A stretch of DNA of 64,000 bases from an uncultured Eubacteriales bacterium (lineage in GTDB: Bacteria; Bacillota; Clostridia; Christensenellales; UBA1242): NCBI GenBank assembly GCA_902476355.1, contig CABSCS010000008.1, forward strand, positions 8,868-72,867. The letters are read 5' to 3'. The number at the start of each line of letters is the position of its first letter. Position 1 is the stretch's first letter. Below the pieces are notes generated by a model. The model saw only the letters and a list, made by a program, of their open reading frames with translations. It had not been told where the DNA came from and did no database searches. A program made the translations under genes and the position numbers. Below are positions 1,918 to 54,019 of the stretch, piece after piece.

Positions 1918-1993
1918 GGGTCATTAGCTCAGTTGGCAGAGCACCTGACTCTTAATCAGGGTGTCCGGGGTTCGAGCCCCCGATGACCCACCA
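1918..1993 (+). tRNA. tRNA-Lys (anticodon CTT), CCA encoded
   Basis: Hand-folded cloverleaf: acceptor GGGTCAT/ATGACCC, D stem GCTC/GAGC, anticodon stem CCTGA/TCAGG with loop CTCTTAA, T arm CGGGG-TTCGAGC-CCCCG, 3' ACCA. Confidence 0.95.
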
Positions 1994-2029: not shown

Positions 2030-2155
2030 AACTTTGCTCGAACCCTGGGTTCGACTCCTGTCGGAGCCAGACCGCAATCAAAGATTGCTCCCGCTTTGTG
2101 CTAAAAACATGCCACAGGCATATTTTCTTAACGCAGTCGCCCCGAAGCCCCACCA
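2030..2155 (+). ncRNA. Unclassified tRNA-linked structured element, copy 1 (5' boundary uncertain)
   Basis: Aligns block-for-block with 39472-39596 (-). Hairpins CTCC-tgtc-GGAG, GCAATC-aaa-GATTGC and ATGCC-aca-GGCAT. Starts with GGGTTCGA. Ends with CCCCGAAGCCCCACCA, which matches the tRNA-Lys 3' end at 14/16 positions. Flanked by terminators. Confidence 0.5.
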
Positions 2156-2186
2156 AAAAAACAAACAAATTATTTGTTCTTTTTTA
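2156..2186 (+). terminator. A/T-rich hairpin plus T-run directly after the element's CCA
   Basis: AAAAAACAAACAAAT / ATTTGTTCTTTTTT imperfect inverted repeat followed by a T-run. Confidence 0.5.
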
Positions 2187-2271
2187 TCTTATCACTAATC
2201 ACTGCTGAAATTATAAACACTTTGAAATGCAAAATTTCAGTTAAAGCAAACTAAAAAAAACAAAGTATAAA

Positions 2272-2294
2272 CCCCGGCAAACGCTGGGGTTTTT
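2272..2294 (+). terminator. Strong orphan terminator hairpin
   Basis: CCCCGGC-aaac-GCTGGGG (one G.U pair) followed by T5. No ORF of 60 aa or more upstream of it. Confidence 0.65.
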
Positions 2295-2453
2295 ATTTTG
2301 CTTATTATGAATCAATTATAAATGGCGTGTGTTTGTTGGAGATATTTAAAAGGTTTAAAGTTTGTTGATTGGCTTACTAAGTGTAAAATATTGCAGGTTT
2401 TGGCTTGATATTTTGCTGTTCGTGTGGTATTATTTGTTTAGAGGATTAGTTTT

Positions 2454-3185
2454 ATGAAAACTGTAATTGTTACAGGTGCGTCACGCGGGATTGGCGCTTG
2501 CATTGCAAAAGAATTTGCAAAAAATGGATATAATGTTGTTTTAAACTATTTTAAAAGCGAGGAAAAGGCGAAAGAGGTTTCAAAAGATATTGAAAGTCTT
2601 GGTGCAAGAGTTTTGCTTTCAAAAGCAGATGTTTCAGACCCTGCGCAAGTTCAAGCAATGGTGGAAGAGGCGATAAAAGTTTTTGGAAATGTTGATGTTT
2701 TGGTAAACAATGCTGGAATTTCGATTTCTGGACTGCTTATAGACATGACAAATGAACAAATTCAAAATCTTGTTTCAACAAATCTTGTTTCTCAAATTGT
2801 TTGCGCAAGAGAGGTTGCAAAACATATGATTGGTCGTCAAAGCGGAAGAATTGTGAATGTTTCATCAATTTGGGGAGTTGTTGGCGGAAGCAACGAAACT
2901 GTTTACAGCGCAACAAAGGCGGGAATAATTGGCTTTACAAAGGCGCTTGCAAAAGAACTTGGACTTTCGAACATAACGGTGAATGCAGTTGCTCCTGGTG
3001 CAATTGAAACCGACATGATGAAATGCTATGACGCTGAAACAAAAAATCAAATTGCAGAAGAAACAACTCTTGGAAGAATTGGAAAACCCGAAGATATTGC
3101 AAAAGCTGTTTTATTTCTTGCAAGTGATGATGCGTCATATATAACCGGTCAAGTTTTGAGAGTTGATGGCGGTTGGAATATATAG
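2454..3185 (+). CDS. Short-chain dehydrogenase/reductase, FabG-like (3-oxoacyl-ACP reductase family)
   Basis: TGASRGIG cofactor motif, NNAG, catalytic S...YSATK. 243 aa, typical SDR length. Confidence 0.8.
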   Translation: MKTVIVTGASRGIGACIAKEFAKNGYNVVLNYFKSEEKAKEVSKDIESLGARVLLSKADVSDPAQVQAMVEEAIKVFGNVDVLVNNAGISISGLLIDMTNEQIQNLVSTNLVSQIVCAREVAKHMIGRQSGRIVNVSSIWGVVGGSNETVYSATKAGIIGFTKALAKELGLSNITVNAVAPGAIETDMMKCYDAETKNQIAEETTLGRIGKPEDIAKAVLFLASDDASYITGQVLRVDGGWNI

Positions 3186-4900: not shown

Positions 4901-5376
4901 TGGAAGATATTACACAACTTATTGATGAACTTGAATCTGAATTTGCCAAAGGCAAGAATTTTTTGTGGTCTAAAAAATCTTTTGTGAACCTTGATAAATG
5001 CGAAGAATTGATTGCAGAACTCAAACAATCGCTTCCTTCTGCACTTCAAGAAGCAAGTTATGTTTTGTCACAAAGAGATAAAATCATTTCACAAGCAAAA
5101 GAACAAGCCGACAAAACATTGAAAGAGGCAGAGGAAAGAGTTGAACAACTTTTAAGTGAAAATGCACTTATCAAAAAAAGTGAAACCGAATCTGCTGAAA
5201 TGATGGAAAATGCAGAAAAGCGTTCAAATCAACTTTATAACGTTACAAAAGACAATATCGATAAACTTTTAAAGTCGGTTGAAGACTATTTGCTTCAAAA
5301 CCTTCACATTGTTCGAAGCAACCGTGAAGAACTCAACAACACAAACTTTTCAGTTAAACCAAAAAATAAACAATAA
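4900..5376 (+). CDS. Coiled-coil protein of unknown function
   Basis: 158 aa, E/K/Q-rich heptad-like sequence. Start overlaps the rsmD stop. Occupies the slot where coaD usually follows rsmD. Confidence 0.45.
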   Translation: MEDITQLIDELESEFAKGKNFLWSKKSFVNLDKCEELIAELKQSLPSALQEASYVLSQRDKIISQAKEQADKTLKEAEERVEQLLSENALIKKSETESAEMMENAEKRSNQLYNVTKDNIDKLLKSVEDYLLQNLHIVRSNREELNNTNFSVKPKNKQ

Positions 5377-5380
5377 AAAC

Positions 5381-5408
5381 AAAAGCACAGTTTCATCTGT
5401 GCTTTTTT
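5381..5408. terminator. Bidirectional terminator between convergent genes
   Basis: A-run, GCACAG-tttcat-CTGTGC, T6. Lies between the + gene ending at 5376 and the - gene ending at 5419. Confidence 0.75.
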
Positions 5409-5418
5409 CATGTCAGCT

Positions 5419-6717
5419 TTAAAATTTGAAAATTGAAAGTAGGACGAGGCAAACAAAAAAGGAAAGAAATGCTTGAACAAATTTTGCAAAAATAAATTTT
5501 GAAACTTTAATGTTTGTTTTTGAAAGAAAAGATAAAGATTGAAAAATGATAGAAAATCCACCAAAAGAAATGAGTGAAGAAATCAACGAATATGAAAGAG
5601 AGCAGTGCACATTAGAGAGCATTTTTACACCTCTTGTCATTTCTATTATGCCAGACATAACACCGCTTGAAAGTGCCGTTTTTTCTGGATTTGAGCCAAA
5701 CAGTGGAGAAATGAGTTTTGCAAAAAAATGCAATATTTTGGTTTGGTTTAAAATGTCGATAAGAACAAAAAAGAAAGCAATATAAAAGCAAACAACAAGC
5801 AAACTTTGTGCAGTGTCAATTGCAGAAGAAGACATGATTTGCAAAAAGTTTTTCTTTGGGCTTTCATGTGTCACTTGTATTCCTGTGCGATGGTTTTGTT
5901 TGTCGTTGTCATCGTTTTGGTTGCTATTTGTTTTGCTTGTTTTTGTGCTTGCAAAGGCAAAGTTGTTTTTGCTTTGATTTAGTTGGTTGAAATTTGCAAT
6001 TTCGTTTTCGCTTGTTGTATTGTTATGAATAAAAGCACATTTGTTTGCGTGGAGGTTCTTGAACGAAGAGGTGGGCTGTACGGCTTTTTTGATTAAACTG
6101 TTAGAAGAGGTTTGCAGATTTGCTTGTTTTGTCAGTTTTTTATTCGTGTTTCTTTGTTTGATTTTTGCAAACAGATTTATAATTATTGCCGAAACAACCG
6201 CTGATATAACACTTGAAACATAAATGATAATTCCAAGTTTTGGGCTGTTGAGCATTCCAGTTCCAACACTTCCGATAATAAAAATAAGCCCAGATGTTGA
6301 AGAAAGAACTGCACACAGAAAACTATCTTTTTTGCTGATTTTTCCTTGCATAAACAGGTCTGCTGTAATTTTTGAACCGATTGGATATCCTGACACAAGA
6401 CTCATGAAAAAGGCATAAAAACAGTCTCCGCCAATGCCAAACAACTTTTGCATTGGCTTGTTGGCAATTTTAGAGAGTTTTTCAAAATTTAGGTTTGTGA
6501 TGATTTTGCAAAGAAACATGAAGGGTAATAGTCCTGGCAGAACCGAAACAAAGAAAAGTTTAATTCCGCTTGTTACGCTTTTTGCGTACAAAGCAGAGTT
6601 TGAAAGAATGCAAAACATGACCAGAAAAATTGCAATAATCCACACATTTTCTTGAAACCGTGCAAATGTGGCTTTTTTTATTTTACATTTTTCGCTGAAT
6701 ATTGTATTATAATGCAT
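5419..6717 (-). CDS. ylbJ: Nucleoside-recognition (Gate) domain membrane protein, YlbJ-like
   Basis: Polytopic membrane protein, convergent with rsmD as ylbJ is in Bacillus. Start moved to the ATG at 6717, because the longer ORF would overlap the divergent gene at 6767. Contains a ~105-aa N/Q/S/T/K-rich linker. Confidence 0.6.
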   Translation of the reverse strand: MHYNTIFSEKCKIKKATFARFQENVWIIAIFLVMFCILSNSALYAKSVTSGIKLFFVSVLPGLLPFMFLCKIITNLNFEKLSKIANKPMQKLFGIGGDCFYAFFMSLVSGYPIGSKITADLFMQGKISKKDSFLCAVLSSTSGLIFIIGSVGTGMLNSPKLGIIIYVSSVISAVVSAIIINLFAKIKQRNTNKKLTKQANLQTSSNSLIKKAVQPTSSFKNLHANKCAFIHNNTTSENEIANFNQLNQSKNNFAFASTKTSKTNSNQNDDNDKQNHRTGIQVTHESPKKNFLQIMSSSAIDTAQSLLVVCFYIAFFFVLIDILNQTKILHFFAKLISPLFGSNPEKTALSSGVMSGIIEMTRGVKMLSNVHCSLSYSLISSLISFGGFSIIFQSLSFLSKTNIKVSKFIFAKFVQAFLSFFVCLVLLSIFKF

Positions 6718-37947: not shown

Positions 37948-38050
37948 TGTTGCTTGATTTGTTTTTTAACTATCTACATTAAAAATGTTTTTTTATTTTG
38001 ATGCTTTATGATATAATATTTTTGATTTATGGCGAACAGGAGTGAGTGAC

Positions 38051-39268
38051 ATGTCTGATGAAAATCAAATTAAAGAACTTGAAAATTTTATGATGAATAT
38101 TGACGAACTTGACAAGTTGTCAAAATATCAAAACGAAGTGAACTTTTTTGAAATTACGGGAATGGTTTCAAAAGAGATAAAGCACAGCAACTTTTTGGCA
38201 TGGCTTTTCAATGTAAATGCAAACCACGGGATTGGTGATAAATTTATTCGCAAGTTTATGCAAAAAGTTATGAAAGAAAATCAAGGTTCAAAAGCGATAA
38301 ATTCGGATATTCTTCATTTGTCTCTGCTTGATTATGACACATTCATGATAAAAAGAGAGTGGAAAAATATTGATATTTTCATGGTTTCAGACGAGGAAAA
38401 ATATACAATTACAATTGAAAACAAAATCTATGCATCTGAAAGACAAAATCAAACACTTGATTATAGAAGTAAAGTTGAACCAATTTATAAAGGATACACA
38501 AACATTTATATTTTTTTAACCATTGATGGTTTGCAGGCGCAAGACAGCGAATATTGGTGCAATGCCAACTATTATATGGTTGTTGAGGCAATTGATGAGA
38601 TCTTGAAAGAAAATCCAAATCTTTCAGATGACGTGAAATTGCTTTTGAAAAATTATGTTTCAATGTTAAGGAGAGATATTATTATGGATAAAGATATTGA
38701 AAAAATTTGTAATGAAATTTATAAAAAATATAAGGTCGCGCTTGATTTGATTTATCAATATCGCCCAGACGAAGTTGCTTCTATTTCAGATTTTATTATG
38801 GATTTTCTTGAAAAGAATGCCGAAAAATATAATGTTATTTTTGACAGAGATAATTGCTCAAAAGCATATGTTCGTTTTACAACAAAATATATGAACAGTC
38901 TTGTTCCGAAAAACAATGATTTGAGTTATGGTTGGAAAAATGGCTGTGGATTTTTATATGAAATTGAAATTCTGGGCAATTATAAATCACAATGTCTTGC
39001 ATCCATTAGTGATGCATCAAACCCTGTTTGTGTTGAGATTTTTAAAATTGCTCAAAAGAACCATAAAAAGTTTAACATTTTGCATAAAAATAACGAAACT
39101 CCAAATCAGTGGGCAAGGGTATTTAGGTCAAATATAATTCTTGACAAAGAACAAATTCAAAACGGTTTGGAAGAGTGCGAAGATGTGCTTGTAAGGCACC
39201 TTGATAAACTTCTTTCAGAAGAAATCCCAGCATTTGAAAACTGTATTAAAGAAAATTTGTCAATTTAG
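38051..39268 (+). CDS. PD-(D/E)XK nuclease-superfamily protein (PDDEXK_4-like N-terminal domain plus uncharacterised C-terminal domain)
   Basis: FFEITGMVSKEIKHSNFLAWLFNVNANHGIGDKF, then NIDIFMVSD...ITIENKI (D...E-x-K). ATG at 38051, 9 nt after the AGGAG RBS. Confidence 0.6.
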   Translation: MSDENQIKELENFMMNIDELDKLSKYQNEVNFFEITGMVSKEIKHSNFLAWLFNVNANHGIGDKFIRKFMQKVMKENQGSKAINSDILHLSLLDYDTFMIKREWKNIDIFMVSDEEKYTITIENKIYASERQNQTLDYRSKVEPIYKGYTNIYIFLTIDGLQAQDSEYWCNANYYMVVEAIDEILKENPNLSDDVKLLLKNYVSMLRRDIIMDKDIEKICNEIYKKYKVALDLIYQYRPDEVASISDFIMDFLEKNAEKYNVIFDRDNCSKAYVRFTTKYMNSLVPKNNDLSYGWKNGCGFLYEIEILGNYKSQCLASISDASNPVCVEIFKIAQKNHKKFNILHKNNETPNQWARVFRSNIILDKEQIQNGLEECEDVLVRHLDKLLSEEIPAFENCIKENLSI

Positions 39269-39427: not shown

Positions 39428-39461
39428 ATAAAATTAAAGAGAAGTCAAACGATTTCTCTTT
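39428..39461 (-). terminator. Hairpin plus short T-run after element copy 2
   Basis: On the minus strand: AAAGAGAA-atcgtttgac-TTCTCTTT followed by AATTTT. Confidence 0.45.
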
Positions 39462-39471
39462 TTATTTTACT

Positions 39472-39596
39472 TGGTGCGAGGAAAGGGGCGACGCGTTAAG
39501 AAAAGTGTTGATAACACTTTTTAGCCAAAGCCGGGGAGAACATGAAATGTTCGGTCTGGAACCGACAGGTTTTGAACCCAAAAGGGTGTAAAGTCA
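39472..39596 (-). ncRNA. Unclassified tRNA-linked structured element, copy 2 (5' boundary uncertain)
   Basis: Same block order as 2030-2155. Hairpins AACC-tgtc-GGTT, GAACAT-ttc-ATGTTC and AAAAGTGTT-atc-AACACTTTT. Starts with GGGTTCAA. The last 16 nt, CCCTTTCCTCGCACCA, are identical to the tRNA-Leu 3' end. Confidence 0.5.
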
Positions 39597-39614
39597 CTTT
39601 TATATTTTTGCATG

Positions 39615-39644
39615 AAAAAAGAGAGGATTGTTCCTCTCTTTTTT
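39615..39644 (-). terminator. Rho-independent terminator after tRNA-Leu
   Basis: On the minus strand: A6-GAGAGGA-acaa-TCCTCTC-T6. Confidence 0.8.
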
Positions 39645-39651
39645 GTTGTAT

Positions 39652-39736
39652 TGGTGCGAGGAAAGGGACTTGAACCCTTACGACTCTCATCACTTGCCCC
39701 TTAAACAAGCGCGTCTGCCTATTCCGCCACCCTCGC
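39652..39736 (-). tRNA. tRNA-Leu, class II, anticodon reads AAG in the canonical 7-nt loop; CCA encoded
   Basis: GCGAGGGTGGCGGAATAGGCAGACGCG-CTTGT-TTAAGGG-GCAAG-T-GAT-GAGA-GTC-GT-AAGGG-TTCAAGT-CCCTT-TCCTCGC-ACCA. The D-arm is near-identical to E. coli tRNA-Leu. Confidence 0.9.
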
Positions 39737-39748
39737 ACAAGTGAACCT

Positions 39749-39777
39749 ATTATATGTCATAATTTTGATTTTGTAAA
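39749..39777 (-). promoter_or_regulatory. Sigma-A promoter for tRNA-Leu
   Basis: On the minus strand: TTTACA, 17-nt spacer, TATAAT, ending ~12 nt before the tRNA 5' end. Confidence 0.6.
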
Positions 39778-52729: not shown

Positions 52730-52973
52730 TATAAAGACGATGACTATGTAAAGTAGTTTTCAATTTCCATGAAGAGAGTGTTGCTCGTGGCTGGAAGGCA
52801 ACATATGGTTCAGTTGAAAATGAATTTCGGCATATGAGTTGCTTGCAGGAAATGGCAAGTCGGTTGCCCCCGTGAAAGGCTGAAACGAGACACTTTTTGT
52901 GTGAAACAAGGTGGTACCACGCTTTCAACGCGTCCTTGGAGAGACAATCTCCATGGGCGCTTTTATTTTTTTT
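52730..52973 (+). promoter_or_regulatory. T-box leader (tRNA-Phe-responsive) controlling pheST
   Basis: Promoter TTGACT-16-TATAAT at 52694-52721. Stem I AGAGAG motif. UUC triplet at 52826-52828 on the 3' side of Stem I. T-box sequence AACAAGGTGGTACCACGC (52906-52923). Terminator GCGTCC...GGGCGC followed by a T-run. Confidence 0.8.
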
Positions 52974-52987
52974 AAAGGAGAAGAAAA

Positions 52988-54019
52988 ATGAAAGAGAAAA
53001 TCTTAAAACTTAAAGAAGAATTTGAAGAGTTCTGCAAAAATGTAAAATCGCTTGCCGATGTAGAATCTTTGCGTCTTGACTTTCTTGGAAAAAAAGGAAA
53101 AATCACAAATTTAATGGCTGATTTCCGTCTTGTTCCAAACGAACAAAAGAAAGAAATTGGAATGCTTATCAACAACCTTAAAACAAACGTTGAAGAAACT
53201 GCAAAAAATTTGAAAGAAAAGGTTGAGGCTCTTGCTCTTGAAGAAGAACTTAAAAATGACAAGAAAATTGACTATACTTTGCCAGTTGATTTGAAAACCG
53301 GAGCACTTTCACCAAGAACCATTCTTCAAAAACAAATCATTGACACTTTTGTTTCAATGGGCTTTATTGTTGAAGATGGAAATGAAATTGAAACCGAATA
53401 TAACAACTTTGACTCTGTAAATGTTCCTGCATCGCACCCAGCACGTGACATGCAAGACACTTTCTGGCTTGACAATGGCGAGGTTTTGAAAACTCAAACT
53501 TCTGCTGCACAAAACCGCATTTTGAGAACACATGGTCCAAAATGTCGTGTTATTTTTCCAGGAAGATGTTTCAGAAATGAAGCACTTGATGCAACCCATG
53601 AAAACACATTCTTCCAAGTTGAAGGCGTTGTTGTTGACGAAAACGTTTCTGTTGCAAACCTTATCTATTTCATGAAACAAATGCTTAAAGGCGTGTTCAA
53701 AAAAGATGTGAACGTTCGTCTTCGTCCTGGATTTTTCCCATTCACTGAACCAAGTTTCGAACTTGATGCAACATGCCCATTCTGTGGTGGAAAGGGTTGC
53801 AACTCTTGTTCAAAAACTGGCTGGCTTGAACTTTGCCCATGCGGTATGATTCATCCAAATGTTTTAAAAATGGCTGGAATTGACCCAGACAAATATAACG
53901 GCTTTGCGTTTGGTCTTGGCTTTGACCGCTTGGTTATGATTAGAACTGGTCTTGAAGATATCCGTTATCTTAACAGCGGAAATATTAAACTTTTAAGCCA
54001 ATATGGAACAAAGATATAG
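52988..54019 (+). CDS. pheS: Phenylalanine--tRNA ligase alpha subunit
   Basis: Class II motifs: FPGRCFRNEALDATH, GFAFGLGFDRL. Confidence 0.95.
   Translation: MKEKILKLKEEFEEFCKNVKSLADVESLRLDFLGKKGKITNLMADFRLVPNEQKKEIGMLINNLKTNVEETAKNLKEKVEALALEEELKNDKKIDYTLPVDLKTGALSPRTILQKQIIDTFVSMGFIVEDGNEIETEYNNFDSVNVPASHPARDMQDTFWLDNGEVLKTQTSAAQNRILRTHGPKCRVIFPGRCFRNEALDATHENTFFQVEGVVVDENVSVANLIYFMKQMLKGVFKKDVNVRLRPGFFPFTEPSFELDATCPFCGGKGCNSCSKTGWLELCPCGMIHPNVLKMAGIDPDKYNGFAFGLGFDRLVMIRTGLEDIRYLNSGNIKLLSQYGTKI

Follow-up and report, generated by a model that had tools for sequence, protein, structure and literature searches.

A 64,000-nucleotide stretch of DNA from an uncultured Eubacteriales bacterium of the Christensenellales (contig CABSCS010000008.1; hereafter the window) carries, downstream of its tRNA-Leu gene, a short structured unit that interrupts a partial second copy of that tRNA. 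A similar unit follows the tRNA-Lys gene. On balance, we think that the unit is probably a copy of a non-coding, non-autonomous mobile structured element that is moved in trans. A preliminary description of the tRNA-Leu locus had left three explanations side by side: a miniature non-autonomous element, the scar of a larger island, and a small RNA (sRNA) that mimics or pairs with its tRNA. The first of these, with movement in trans, fits best: occupancy differs between related species, and many copies lie beside other tRNAs. The attachment-site (att) scar of a lost island is not the best reading.

ARAGORN finds only two tRNA genes in the window, Lys(ctt) and Leu(aag), and one unit lies downstream of each (Table 1). 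At the Leu locus, the exact 16-nt duplication reported earlier is confirmed. The final 16 nt of the tRNA (CCCTTTCCTCGCACCA, 39667-39652) recur at 39487-39472 after a gap of 164 nt, and this second copy consists of the 3' strand of the T stem, the 3' strand of the acceptor stem, the discriminator base and CCA. At the Lys locus, the second 3' copy begins 146 nt beyond the tRNA; the layout and gap described there hold, but the Lys repeat is imperfect, not exact. Both loci read tRNA, hairpin with T run, TTTTTTCATG (39620-39611, after the first Leu hairpin), a variable stretch, a sense piece of the tRNA (GGGTTCAA at Leu, GGGTTCGA at Lys), a core ending GTCGCC, a tRNA 3' copy, and a second hairpin with T run (at ~2156-2186 in the Lys unit). 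From terminator through core to 3' copy, the two downstream regions are 73% identical; the hairpin sequences differ and their pairing is kept. The 18-nt sequence CCTGTCGGNNCCAGACCG occurs twice in the window against 0.03 expected, and two covariance models described below, R1 and R2, each match only these two places, at the only tRNA genes of the window. The two copies are therefore not due to chance.

The unit is more than two bracketing repeats. At Leu, the distal T arm is split into GGGTTCAA and CCCTTTCC, with the core lodged between the two halves, and a decayed inverted copy of the arm lies just upstream of GGGTTCAA. The exact complement expected for this inverted block (AAAAGTGACTTTACACCCTT) is AAAGGGACTTGAACCCTT; the block at the orthologous locus L255 reads AAAGGGACTTTGCACCC, and the window block scores 10 in local alignment against tRNA positions 58-75. 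Because the tRNA gene is intact and the interrupted copy is partial, the 16-nt repeat is a compensating duplication that keeps the tRNA functional, and what the element breaks up is only the redundant partial copy.

Homologues of the core were sought with the 18-nt motif in one genome per species. At least 118 stretches matched, of which about 30 are true homologues. Model R1, built on 27 homologues, matches at least 33 full-length cores at 30 loci in about 28 species, with scores of 70-104 bits; all sources are genome bins of uncultured Clostridia, Christensenella/Christensenellaceae and Candidatus Onthoplasma. In about 26 of 31 homologues, judged by eye, the order is tRNA, terminator-like hairpin, short spacer, inverted block, linker, sense piece, core, tRNA 3' part and terminator. 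The inverted block, 15-24 nt long, is the reverse complement of the uninterrupted tRNA arm and is followed by a linker of 2-6 nt. The sense piece before the core comprises the 5' strand of a stem and about five loop bases, and the equivalent piece is tRNA-specific in every homologue. After the core, sense tRNA sequence runs from the 3' strand of that stem to CCA. The core always lies within an arm of a partial tRNA copy, which it breaks at either the T loop or the anticodon loop: the T arm at Lys, Arg, His, Asn, Ile, Ser and Leu(aag), and the anticodon arm at Leu(caa) and Leu(taa). Each copy had been described as tailored to its own tRNA, and the inverted blocks bear this out: for Lys, Leu(aag, caa, taa), His, Arg, Asn, Ile, Ser and Glu, they align with their cognate tRNA at a mean score of 12.4, compared with 7.0 for non-cognate tRNAs.

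The duplicated segment has a constant start, at the junction, and a variable far end, which falls exactly at CCA, past the T run of the terminator, or in a partial second spacer and inverted block; the terminator is often included. Among homologues, the direct repeats range from 16 to 92 nt. Tandem arrays occur (L072, L067, L082, L015, L241), as do longer sense pieces (L025, L058, L061, L078, L014) and truncated or decayed cores (L028, L057, the second copy of L082). At L014, a tRNA-Met locus, two partial tRNA copies have an intact T loop and a third holds the core. At L090, the element lies on the 5' side of an opposite-strand tRNA, and what is duplicated there is the 5' half of the tRNA in antisense; at L061, a diverged second member sits, inverted, in the variable loop of the same pseudo-tRNA.

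The arrangement is not confined to one core or one orientation. A downstream copy of the last 16 nt, within 330 nt, follows 45 of 109 evaluable tRNAs, a tally drawn from loci selected for carrying the element that gives no genome-wide rate, and the 3' module of the core lies in between in at least 40 of the 45. At least 12 more tRNA loci (Leu-gag, -tag and -cag; Pro, Thr, Met, Ala, Arg, Glu and Ser) have the same layout seen from the tRNA with the module reversed: tRNA, terminator, inverted T-arm block, element, direct 3' fragment from the T loop, and duplicated terminator. At L241 (~245-760), tRNA-Thr(ggt) is followed by three tandem units built around a ~55 nt core unrelated to that of the window, each unit comprising an inverted T-arm block, this core, a direct fragment of the tRNA 3' part and a terminator. 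The tRNA-Ser of L225 has the layout of the window units around yet another shorter, unrelated core. The layout is generic and independent of the orientation of the element, which sits at the junction of a short inverted and a long direct copy of tRNA 3' sequence.

A mirror-image arrangement was also seen 5' of tRNAs at L025 (~2100-2600, minus strand) and L020 (~2890-3050), in the order tRNA 5'-part copy, unrelated structured insert in the D-loop/anticodon region, inverted arm copy, intact tRNA. A second, nearly complete tRNA-Arg at L025 has an insert in its D loop and another in its T loop.

Direct repeats of a tRNA 3' end could be the attL and attR of a classical tRNA-targeting integrase element, either a minimal cis-mobilisable one or an island remnant deleted to ~150 bp, of which the core would be the conserved end. 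The T loop and the anticodon loop, in which the repeats begin, are reportedly known sublocations of integrase crossover at tRNA genes, as Williams is said to have set out in 2002. At several loci the repeat ends exactly at CCA and the tRNA-side flank travels with the element, beside a species-specific distal flank (L032, L117, L072), and the tandem arrays resemble accretion of integrative elements. Against this, the very arm that recombination would need is split by the core, the module family also sits in non-tRNA hairpins and in both orientations, the layout recurs around unrelated cores, and the succession of terminator, inverted arm and core is too uniform for random deletion remnants. No larger related element was found in viral contigs, phages or plasmids. 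A large serine recombinase does abut a unit at L021 (3750-5516), where its open reading frame (ORF) reaches a remnant of a tRNA 3' end with a terminator and continues, with no stop codon, through the adjacent unit, but this is the single case among ~150 loci that otherwise have no linked integrase, and the recombinase appears to belong to a separate island integrated into the tRNA-proximal copy. The window had been described as free of integrases; this holds for the ten ORFs between 25.9 and 45.3 kb, to which our scan was limited. We therefore give an att origin little weight.

The conserved core is ~87 nt long and non-coding, with three covarying hairpins, Pa, P2 and P3. In the Leu copy, Pa (AACC-TGTC-GGTT) is followed by CCAGACC, P2 (GAACAT-TTC-ATGTTC), CTCCCCGGCTTTG, and the 3' module, GCTAAAAAG-hairpin P3-CTTTTCTTAACGC. 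The three hairpins are paired in 96.4% of cells compared with 65% in shuffles, and the covariation score is 0.61 compared with 0.14 in shuffles and at most 0.115 with partners slid. Pa has the form NNCC-TGTC-GGNN, and its outer two pairs take six Watson-Crick combinations. G-U pairs occupy only 3 of 417 stem cells. The core termini, CCTGTCGG... and ...AACGCGTCGCC, are not inverted repeats of each other, and a classical miniature inverted-repeat transposable element was set aside since no terminal inverted repeats belong to the element. Loop sequences are strongly conserved across the ~28 species too. In Rfam 15, only the tRNA and T-box families reach their gathering scores in the window, and the unit has no credible match at E up to 10.

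The last 35 nt of the core, GCTAAAAAC-hairpin-GTTTTCTTAACGC, are the signature of a larger superfamily and the basis of model R2. A scan of metagenomes for GCTAAAAAC, 8-26 nt and TTTTCTTAACGC placed the module at no fewer than 120 loci from human gut, rumen, camel and fermenter samples; among the matches listed, 114 are distinct and only three have the window-type 5' half. P3 is 97% paired in the module, with abundant compensatory change, and the flanking GC/GC pairs are invariant. Stem pairs in 106 modules comprise 565 Watson-Crick, 7 G-U and 4 A-C. This symmetry, with G-U pairs nearly absent, is better explained by selection acting on DNA hairpins, or on both strands, than by selection for a single RNA. 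Module members occur in either orientation, at many tRNAs and in the loops of unrelated hairpins. An Rfam 15 search over the module found no family at 23 other loci.

The preliminary description had suggested that the hairpin it called Hb, followed by TTTTCTT, could act as an internal terminator. P3 is indeed followed by TTTTCTT and, flanked by an A run on its 5' side and a T run on its 3' side, has the look of an intrinsic terminator on both strands; on the reverse strand, the sequence after the hairpin reads GTTTTTAG. A terminator scan scored the Lys P3 (2109-2121) as terminator-like. The module, which is the most widely conserved part of the element, thus looks like a bidirectional intrinsic terminator as predicted from its sequence. 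An extra helix (before GCT and after AACGC) was left out of the model because it is 40-60% paired in one fixed register; this outer helix covaries in some subfamilies (CCACAA/TTGTGG, GGTAT/ATACC, GTTTGC/GCAAAC). One module subfamily has a conserved non-tRNA location ~500 nt downstream of a homologue of rplM (L13) in L145, L169 and L231; in L184, the L13 homologue instead follows the module after ~650 nt.

Orthologous loci show that the units come and go. The preliminary description had proposed a search for empty sites at the tRNA-Leu and tRNA-Lys loci of related genomes, and a search for more copies beside other tRNAs; many such copies were found, and occupancy differs at both loci. Relatives were identified through the YfhO gene beside tRNA-Leu (97, 83, 75 and 74% identity), and the comparisons are between species rather than within a single population. 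All four share the synteny of YfhO, YpsA, CtsR and McsB, and have an identical tRNA-Leu with its promoter region kept. Where the window has one unit, L258 (97%) has the same core, but its first terminator is a different one and its spacer is longer. L255 (83%) has the unit, a duplicated terminator, and a second core, degenerate at its 5' end, ~330 nt further on and again followed by CCCTTTCCTCGCACCA. In L256 (75%), the tRNA and its terminator are followed by unrelated AT-rich DNA, with only a decayed core fragment ~330 nt away, and L257 (74%) carries a tandem pair of units from another subfamily, which is shorter and in the opposite orientation. L125, which shares its sample of origin with L255, has kept the flanking genes of the Lys locus and an identical tRNA-Lys and has no unit. 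Since occupancy differs at orthologous loci, the feature is turned over rather than fixed: units are gained, lost, duplicated in tandem and replaced among related species.

The tRNA-Lys(ctt) of L125, at 6158-6233, is inverted within the same interval from RNase R to adh_short. In three independent assemblies (L131, L132, L133) with an RNase R gene 89% identical to that of the window, the contigs break within ~10 nt after this gene, just before the expected tRNA-Lys and unit, which is consistent with a repeat-induced assembly break.

The conservation of the core could, alternatively, reflect a functional non-coding RNA gene family. Such RNAs would be made by read-through of the tRNA terminator and closed by a helix of the inverted block with the sense pieces, and would act on or with the cognate tRNA, as guide, decoy, sponge or processing signal, or the unit could be a strong terminator module kept by the host. 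The location, in the 3' trailer of tRNA operons with blocks matched to the tRNA, is what such a role would predict, as is the conservation of sequence and structure with intact window cores beside decayed neighbouring blocks, but G-U pairs are nearly nil, and neither window locus has a promoter between the first tRNA terminator and the core. Stand-alone copies at L061 do have a promoter-like TTGATA upstream and their own terminator. Likewise, the unit is retained at tRNA-Leu in the window, L258 and L255, but is absent or replaced in the close relatives L256, L257 and L125. Opposite-orientation members (L090, L257 and many reversed-module loci) would carry the wrong strand of the tRNA-derived blocks, the two changes in the Lys 3' copy (CCCCGAAGCCCCACCA compared with CCCCCGATGACCCACCA in tRNA-Lys) would break the acceptor stem, and copies that are truncated or decayed, tandem arrays, and members lodged within other repeats also speak against such a gene. 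We consider an RNA gene unlikely on these grounds. Opposite orientation, decay, lack of an own promoter and near-absence of G-U pairs weaken in particular the earlier suggestion of an sRNA that mimics or pairs with its tRNA. A spare tRNA 3' half, a tRNA mimic or trans-splicing repair was rejected because of the opposite-orientation members; moreover, the 3' copy at Lys would form no pairs with the 5' strand of the tRNA.

Members of the superfamily also occupy hairpins that have nothing to do with tRNAs, and there they have no tRNA repeats. The hairpin GGTACTTTTGG-CCGTTGTC-CCAAAAGTACC is empty in L183 and L223, and present as a variant in L197. In L201, L222 and L137, the same hairpin is filled by a ~125-nt member of a GC-rich subfamily that lies in its loop with homologous flanks on both sides (subfamily and flanks were compared by pairwise BLAST). 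A second common hairpin, GTGGCAATCCG ... CGGATTCCCAC, holds members in either orientation or unrelated short inserts. The inverted repeats that flank the element vary from copy to copy and are derived from the target. Members sit at the apex or junction of inverted repeats, the tips of DNA hairpins.

Two of the surrounding repeats were characterised in passing. The filled or empty hairpin lies in a repeat of ~600 nt, rich in long hairpins (L183 ~4950-5600; also L197, L223, L201, L222 and L137), which has imperfect terminal inverted repeats of ~32 nt (GTTTCGTCCCTGCGGGGACGAGGTACTTTTGG ... GGCAAAAGTAGGTCGCCCCGGAGGGCGAAAC), follows different housekeeping genes and has no Rfam match; module members are nested in its hairpin loops. 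A palindromic repeat, GTCATTGCGAG...CGTGGCAATCCG / CGGATTCCCACG...CTCGGAATGAC (L137 103-155, L174 ~10606, L180 ~4535, L202 ~10816), has a central loop insert that differs by copy: one of 30 nt, one of 74 nt, or a module element, whose orientation can be either.

At the loci examined, we found neither a recombinase nor TnpB nor a reverse transcriptase in linkage with the element. Two kinds of guide-RNA transposon could leave miniature derivatives of this size: IS200/IS605 palindrome-associated elements with a TnpB guide scaffold, in which the 3' guide would be the flanking tRNA sequence, and IS110 with its bridge RNA. In keeping with such a derivative, a conserved scaffold runs into a variable 3' stretch that matches the flank exactly, the element lacks terminal inverted repeats, and the chemistry would be that of single-stranded DNA. 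The dinucleotides on the two sides of CCTGTCGG vary in concert, with six combinations represented, and left flanks of window-type copies end in TTCG or in a short possible target motif (TTCGA, TTCAA, CTTAA or TCAAA), but the tRNA junction lies elsewhere in L014 and L071. Neither the inverted block nor the long duplication is predicted by such a mechanism, and no IS605-orfB or other Rfam family matches at E up to 10. Nor is there a tnpB, tnpA, iscB or IS110 gene upstream of 124 module copies: a same-strand upstream ORF of at least 150 aa is present at 41 of them, and the ten that were read, by inspection and with no family search, look like housekeeping genes (IspG, GalE, ProA, DEAD-box helicase). 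We therefore set aside the idea of a TnpB guide RNA, which the widespread module with variable 3' flanks had prompted, and hold any guide-RNA derivative to be very improbable. A DEDD recombinase (IS110) beside a structured RNA was not found among the neighbours examined.

All-against-all BLASTP of the ORFs within 3.5-4 kb of 30 genome loci and 120 metagenome loci found no recurrent neighbouring protein family, and a conserved partner gene was set aside on this result; the two largest clusters consist of spurious ORFs that cross the GC-rich element. The neighbours in the window are housekeeping genes and a gene of the PD-(D/E)XK nuclease family. The latter is an ORF of 408 aa at 38042-39268 on the plus strand (PF14281, E 1.4e-29) that converges on the distal end of the Leu unit. 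Since it is missing from the same interval in L255, L256 and L257, the stretch behind tRNA-Leu is a variable spot. A T-box leader at 52731-52940 on the plus strand (Rfam RF00230, 100.7 bits), upstream of an ORF at 52988-54019, is unrelated to the units.

Table 1. Positions of tRNA genes and unit components at the two window loci.
Feature	Position	Strand	Remarks
tRNA-Leu(aag), intact	39652..39736	-	ARAGORN; Rfam tRNA 45.3 bits; same tRNA in L255, L256, L257 and L258
Promoter-like site of tRNA-Leu	39749..39777	-	TTTACA, 17 nt spacer, TATAAT; 11/12 matches
Terminator-like hairpin 1, Leu locus	39615..39644	both strands	A run 5', T run 3'
Inverted (antisense) T-arm copy, decayed	39582..39601	-	AAAAGTGACTTTACACCCTT; includes start of acceptor 3' strand
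Sense piece, Leu locus	39572..39579	-	GGGTTCAA; 3 nt of T-stem 5' strand and first 5 nt of tRNA-Leu T loop
Conserved core, Leu locus	39488..39571	-	Ends GTCGC; R1 76.9 bits (39485-39571); R2 51.2 bits (39486-39532)
Second tRNA-Leu 3' end	39472..39487	-	16/16 identical to CCCTTTCCTCGCACCA, same orientation
Terminator-like hairpin 2, Leu locus	39436..39461	unassigned	Diverged relative of hairpin 1
tRNA-Lys(ctt), intact	1918..1993	+	ARAGORN; Rfam 68.8 bits
5' block of Lys unit	2036..2054	+	Inverted GCTCGAACCC, linker T, sense GGGTTCGA; jointly an 8-bp palindrome
Core, Lys locus	2055..2139	+	R1 95.5 bits (2055-2142); R2 57.5 bits (2093-2141)
tRNA-Lys 3'-end copy, imperfect	2140..2155	+	CCCCGAAGCCCCACCA; CCCCCGATGACCCACCA in tRNA-Lys

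How could a mobile element of this kind reach tRNA genes and other hairpins alike? Near-pure Watson-Crick stems, the lack of a promoter before the core and the presence of both orientations hint at a structure that works at the level of DNA, and tandem arrays, truncated or decayed copies and tRNA 3' copies with a module between them are signs of a selfish repeat. The element may travel as a single strand, made either of DNA or of a copy derived from RNA. Pairing of the inverted block with the two sense pieces would rebuild the duplex of the tRNA gene within this strand and leave the core as a loop at the joining point. The folded site would then be joined to a tRNA gene, or to another hairpin, by an enzyme encoded elsewhere in the genome. 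Strand exchange with the tRNA gene at the junction of the core and the 3' strand of the stem would yield an intact tRNA, the spacer or terminator borne by the element, the inverted block, the sense piece, the core and the 3' end of the host gene, which is the order observed. Subsequent recombination between direct repeats could produce arrays and losses, and recombination between the inverted flanks could flip the element. We offer this mechanism as a hypothesis.

Several observations weigh against a mobile element of this kind. No recent hop was seen, nor were identical copies at different tRNAs of one genome; the window copies, being ~73% alike, are old. The cores are very well kept while the inverted blocks of the window have decayed, a pattern that hints at selection acting on the core in place, and so at a role for the host. 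The preferred reading does not account for where the inverted block comes from. Comparisons of filled and empty hairpins are between paralogous rather than orthologous sites, given that the hairpin is part of the larger dispersed repeat. Away from tRNAs, the inverted repeat around the element was already part of the target, and if this were so at tRNAs too, the idea of a folded attachment site would be wrong. Finally, the neighbour searches described above yielded no enzyme and no recurrent protein, only upstream genes of housekeeping appearance among those read, and no member of the family was found in IMG/VR viral contigs, GenBank phages or PLSDB plasmids; four matches in the viral contigs are all chance hits to unrelated sequence.

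We found no description in the literature that matches these units, nor of the module sequence itself, in a search of incomplete coverage, such that an earlier description is possible. Elements related by mechanism are nevertheless known. The attP(+) of phage CTX, other elements that exploit Xer recombinases, and the attC sites of integrons resemble the units in having two inverted target-like copies with ~50-110 nt of variable or structured sequence between them, in a strand that folds to mimic the site; they also leave the chromosomal site intact on one side, form arrays of small and even non-coding units, and have no enzyme gene on the element. The inverted block of our unit is complementary both to the sense pieces and to the cognate tRNA, so a duplex that mimics the target can fold. 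Unlike in these systems, the target here is a tRNA arm or an arbitrary hairpin rather than dif or attI, no link to IntI or Xer was found, the looped-out part is strongly conserved rather than variable, and the inverted repeat at non-tRNA sites belongs to the target. RYYYAAC/GTTRRRY core sites are lacking as well: TCTTAAC occurs in the unit with no GTTAAGA partner on the same strand, and an integron attC was rejected on the absence of core sites.

Streptococcal cis-mobilisable elements (CIMEs) and the like share with the units direct repeats of tRNA 3' ends, lack of an own recombinase, tandem arrays and patchy presence among relatives. They are kilobases long, whereas the units here measure 130-200 bp, interrupt an arm with a core and include an inverted copy of that arm, and no cognate integrative element is known. 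Miniature IS200/IS605 elements and TnpB guide RNAs are likewise small, ORF-less and rich in hairpins, lack terminal inverted repeats and short target duplications, and abut target-derived sequence with their 3' end. The units differ from them in having no tnpA or tnpB near the copies examined, no Rfam match, a junction that varies, a long duplication and an inverted block. Repetitive extragenic palindromes (REP) and their mosaics (BIME), IS1397/IS110 insertions in REP hairpins and the intervening sequences of rRNA are similar in their position at a hairpin apex, whether between genes or within genes for structured RNAs, their sporadic occurrence and their flanks, which form an extended stem. 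Here, however, the conserved sequence is another one, there is no transposase, and the tRNA case involves a compensating duplication.

Tandem inversion duplications, described in Salmonella and attributed to template switching at quasi-palindromes, also yield a direct, a short inverted and a second direct copy with hairpin junctions. Template switching that creates a direct-inverted-direct duplication is an alternative that fits part of our data. In contrast to such a general replication error, which carries no cargo, a conserved element lies at the inverted/direct junction at dozens of independent loci.

We place the units with non-autonomous mobile or structured repeats, and see a real chance that a new mechanism is at work. 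Tentatively, and with more doubt than for mobility in trans as such, we suggest that they are unrecognised gene-less mobile elements that integrate through a self-folding site imitating a host hairpin, for example a tRNA arm, with the core as the handle for a host or helper enzyme. If so, the tRNA loci of these bacteria would be small cassette arrays of non-coding units. In a further variant, the units may have been taken over by the host, to serve as portable terminators in both directions or as decoy attachment sites shielding its tRNA genes. The responsible enzyme could be a new hairpin- or single-strand-specific recombinase, and GCTAAAAAC-hairpin-GTTTTCTTAACGC, together with models R1 and R2, provides a sequence handle by which to find it.

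These loci also advise caution, in that not every repeat of a tRNA 3' end is the footprint of an integrase. Units of this kind may contribute to assembly breaks near tRNAs in metagenome bins, as perhaps in the three assemblies that end beside tRNA-Lys. If confirmed, they would constitute a family of structured repeats, abundant and so far undescribed, among the Christensenellales and related Clostridia common in the gut, a family that encodes nothing and reshapes both tRNA loci and other hairpins, and they would explain many of the partial tRNA copies in these genomes.

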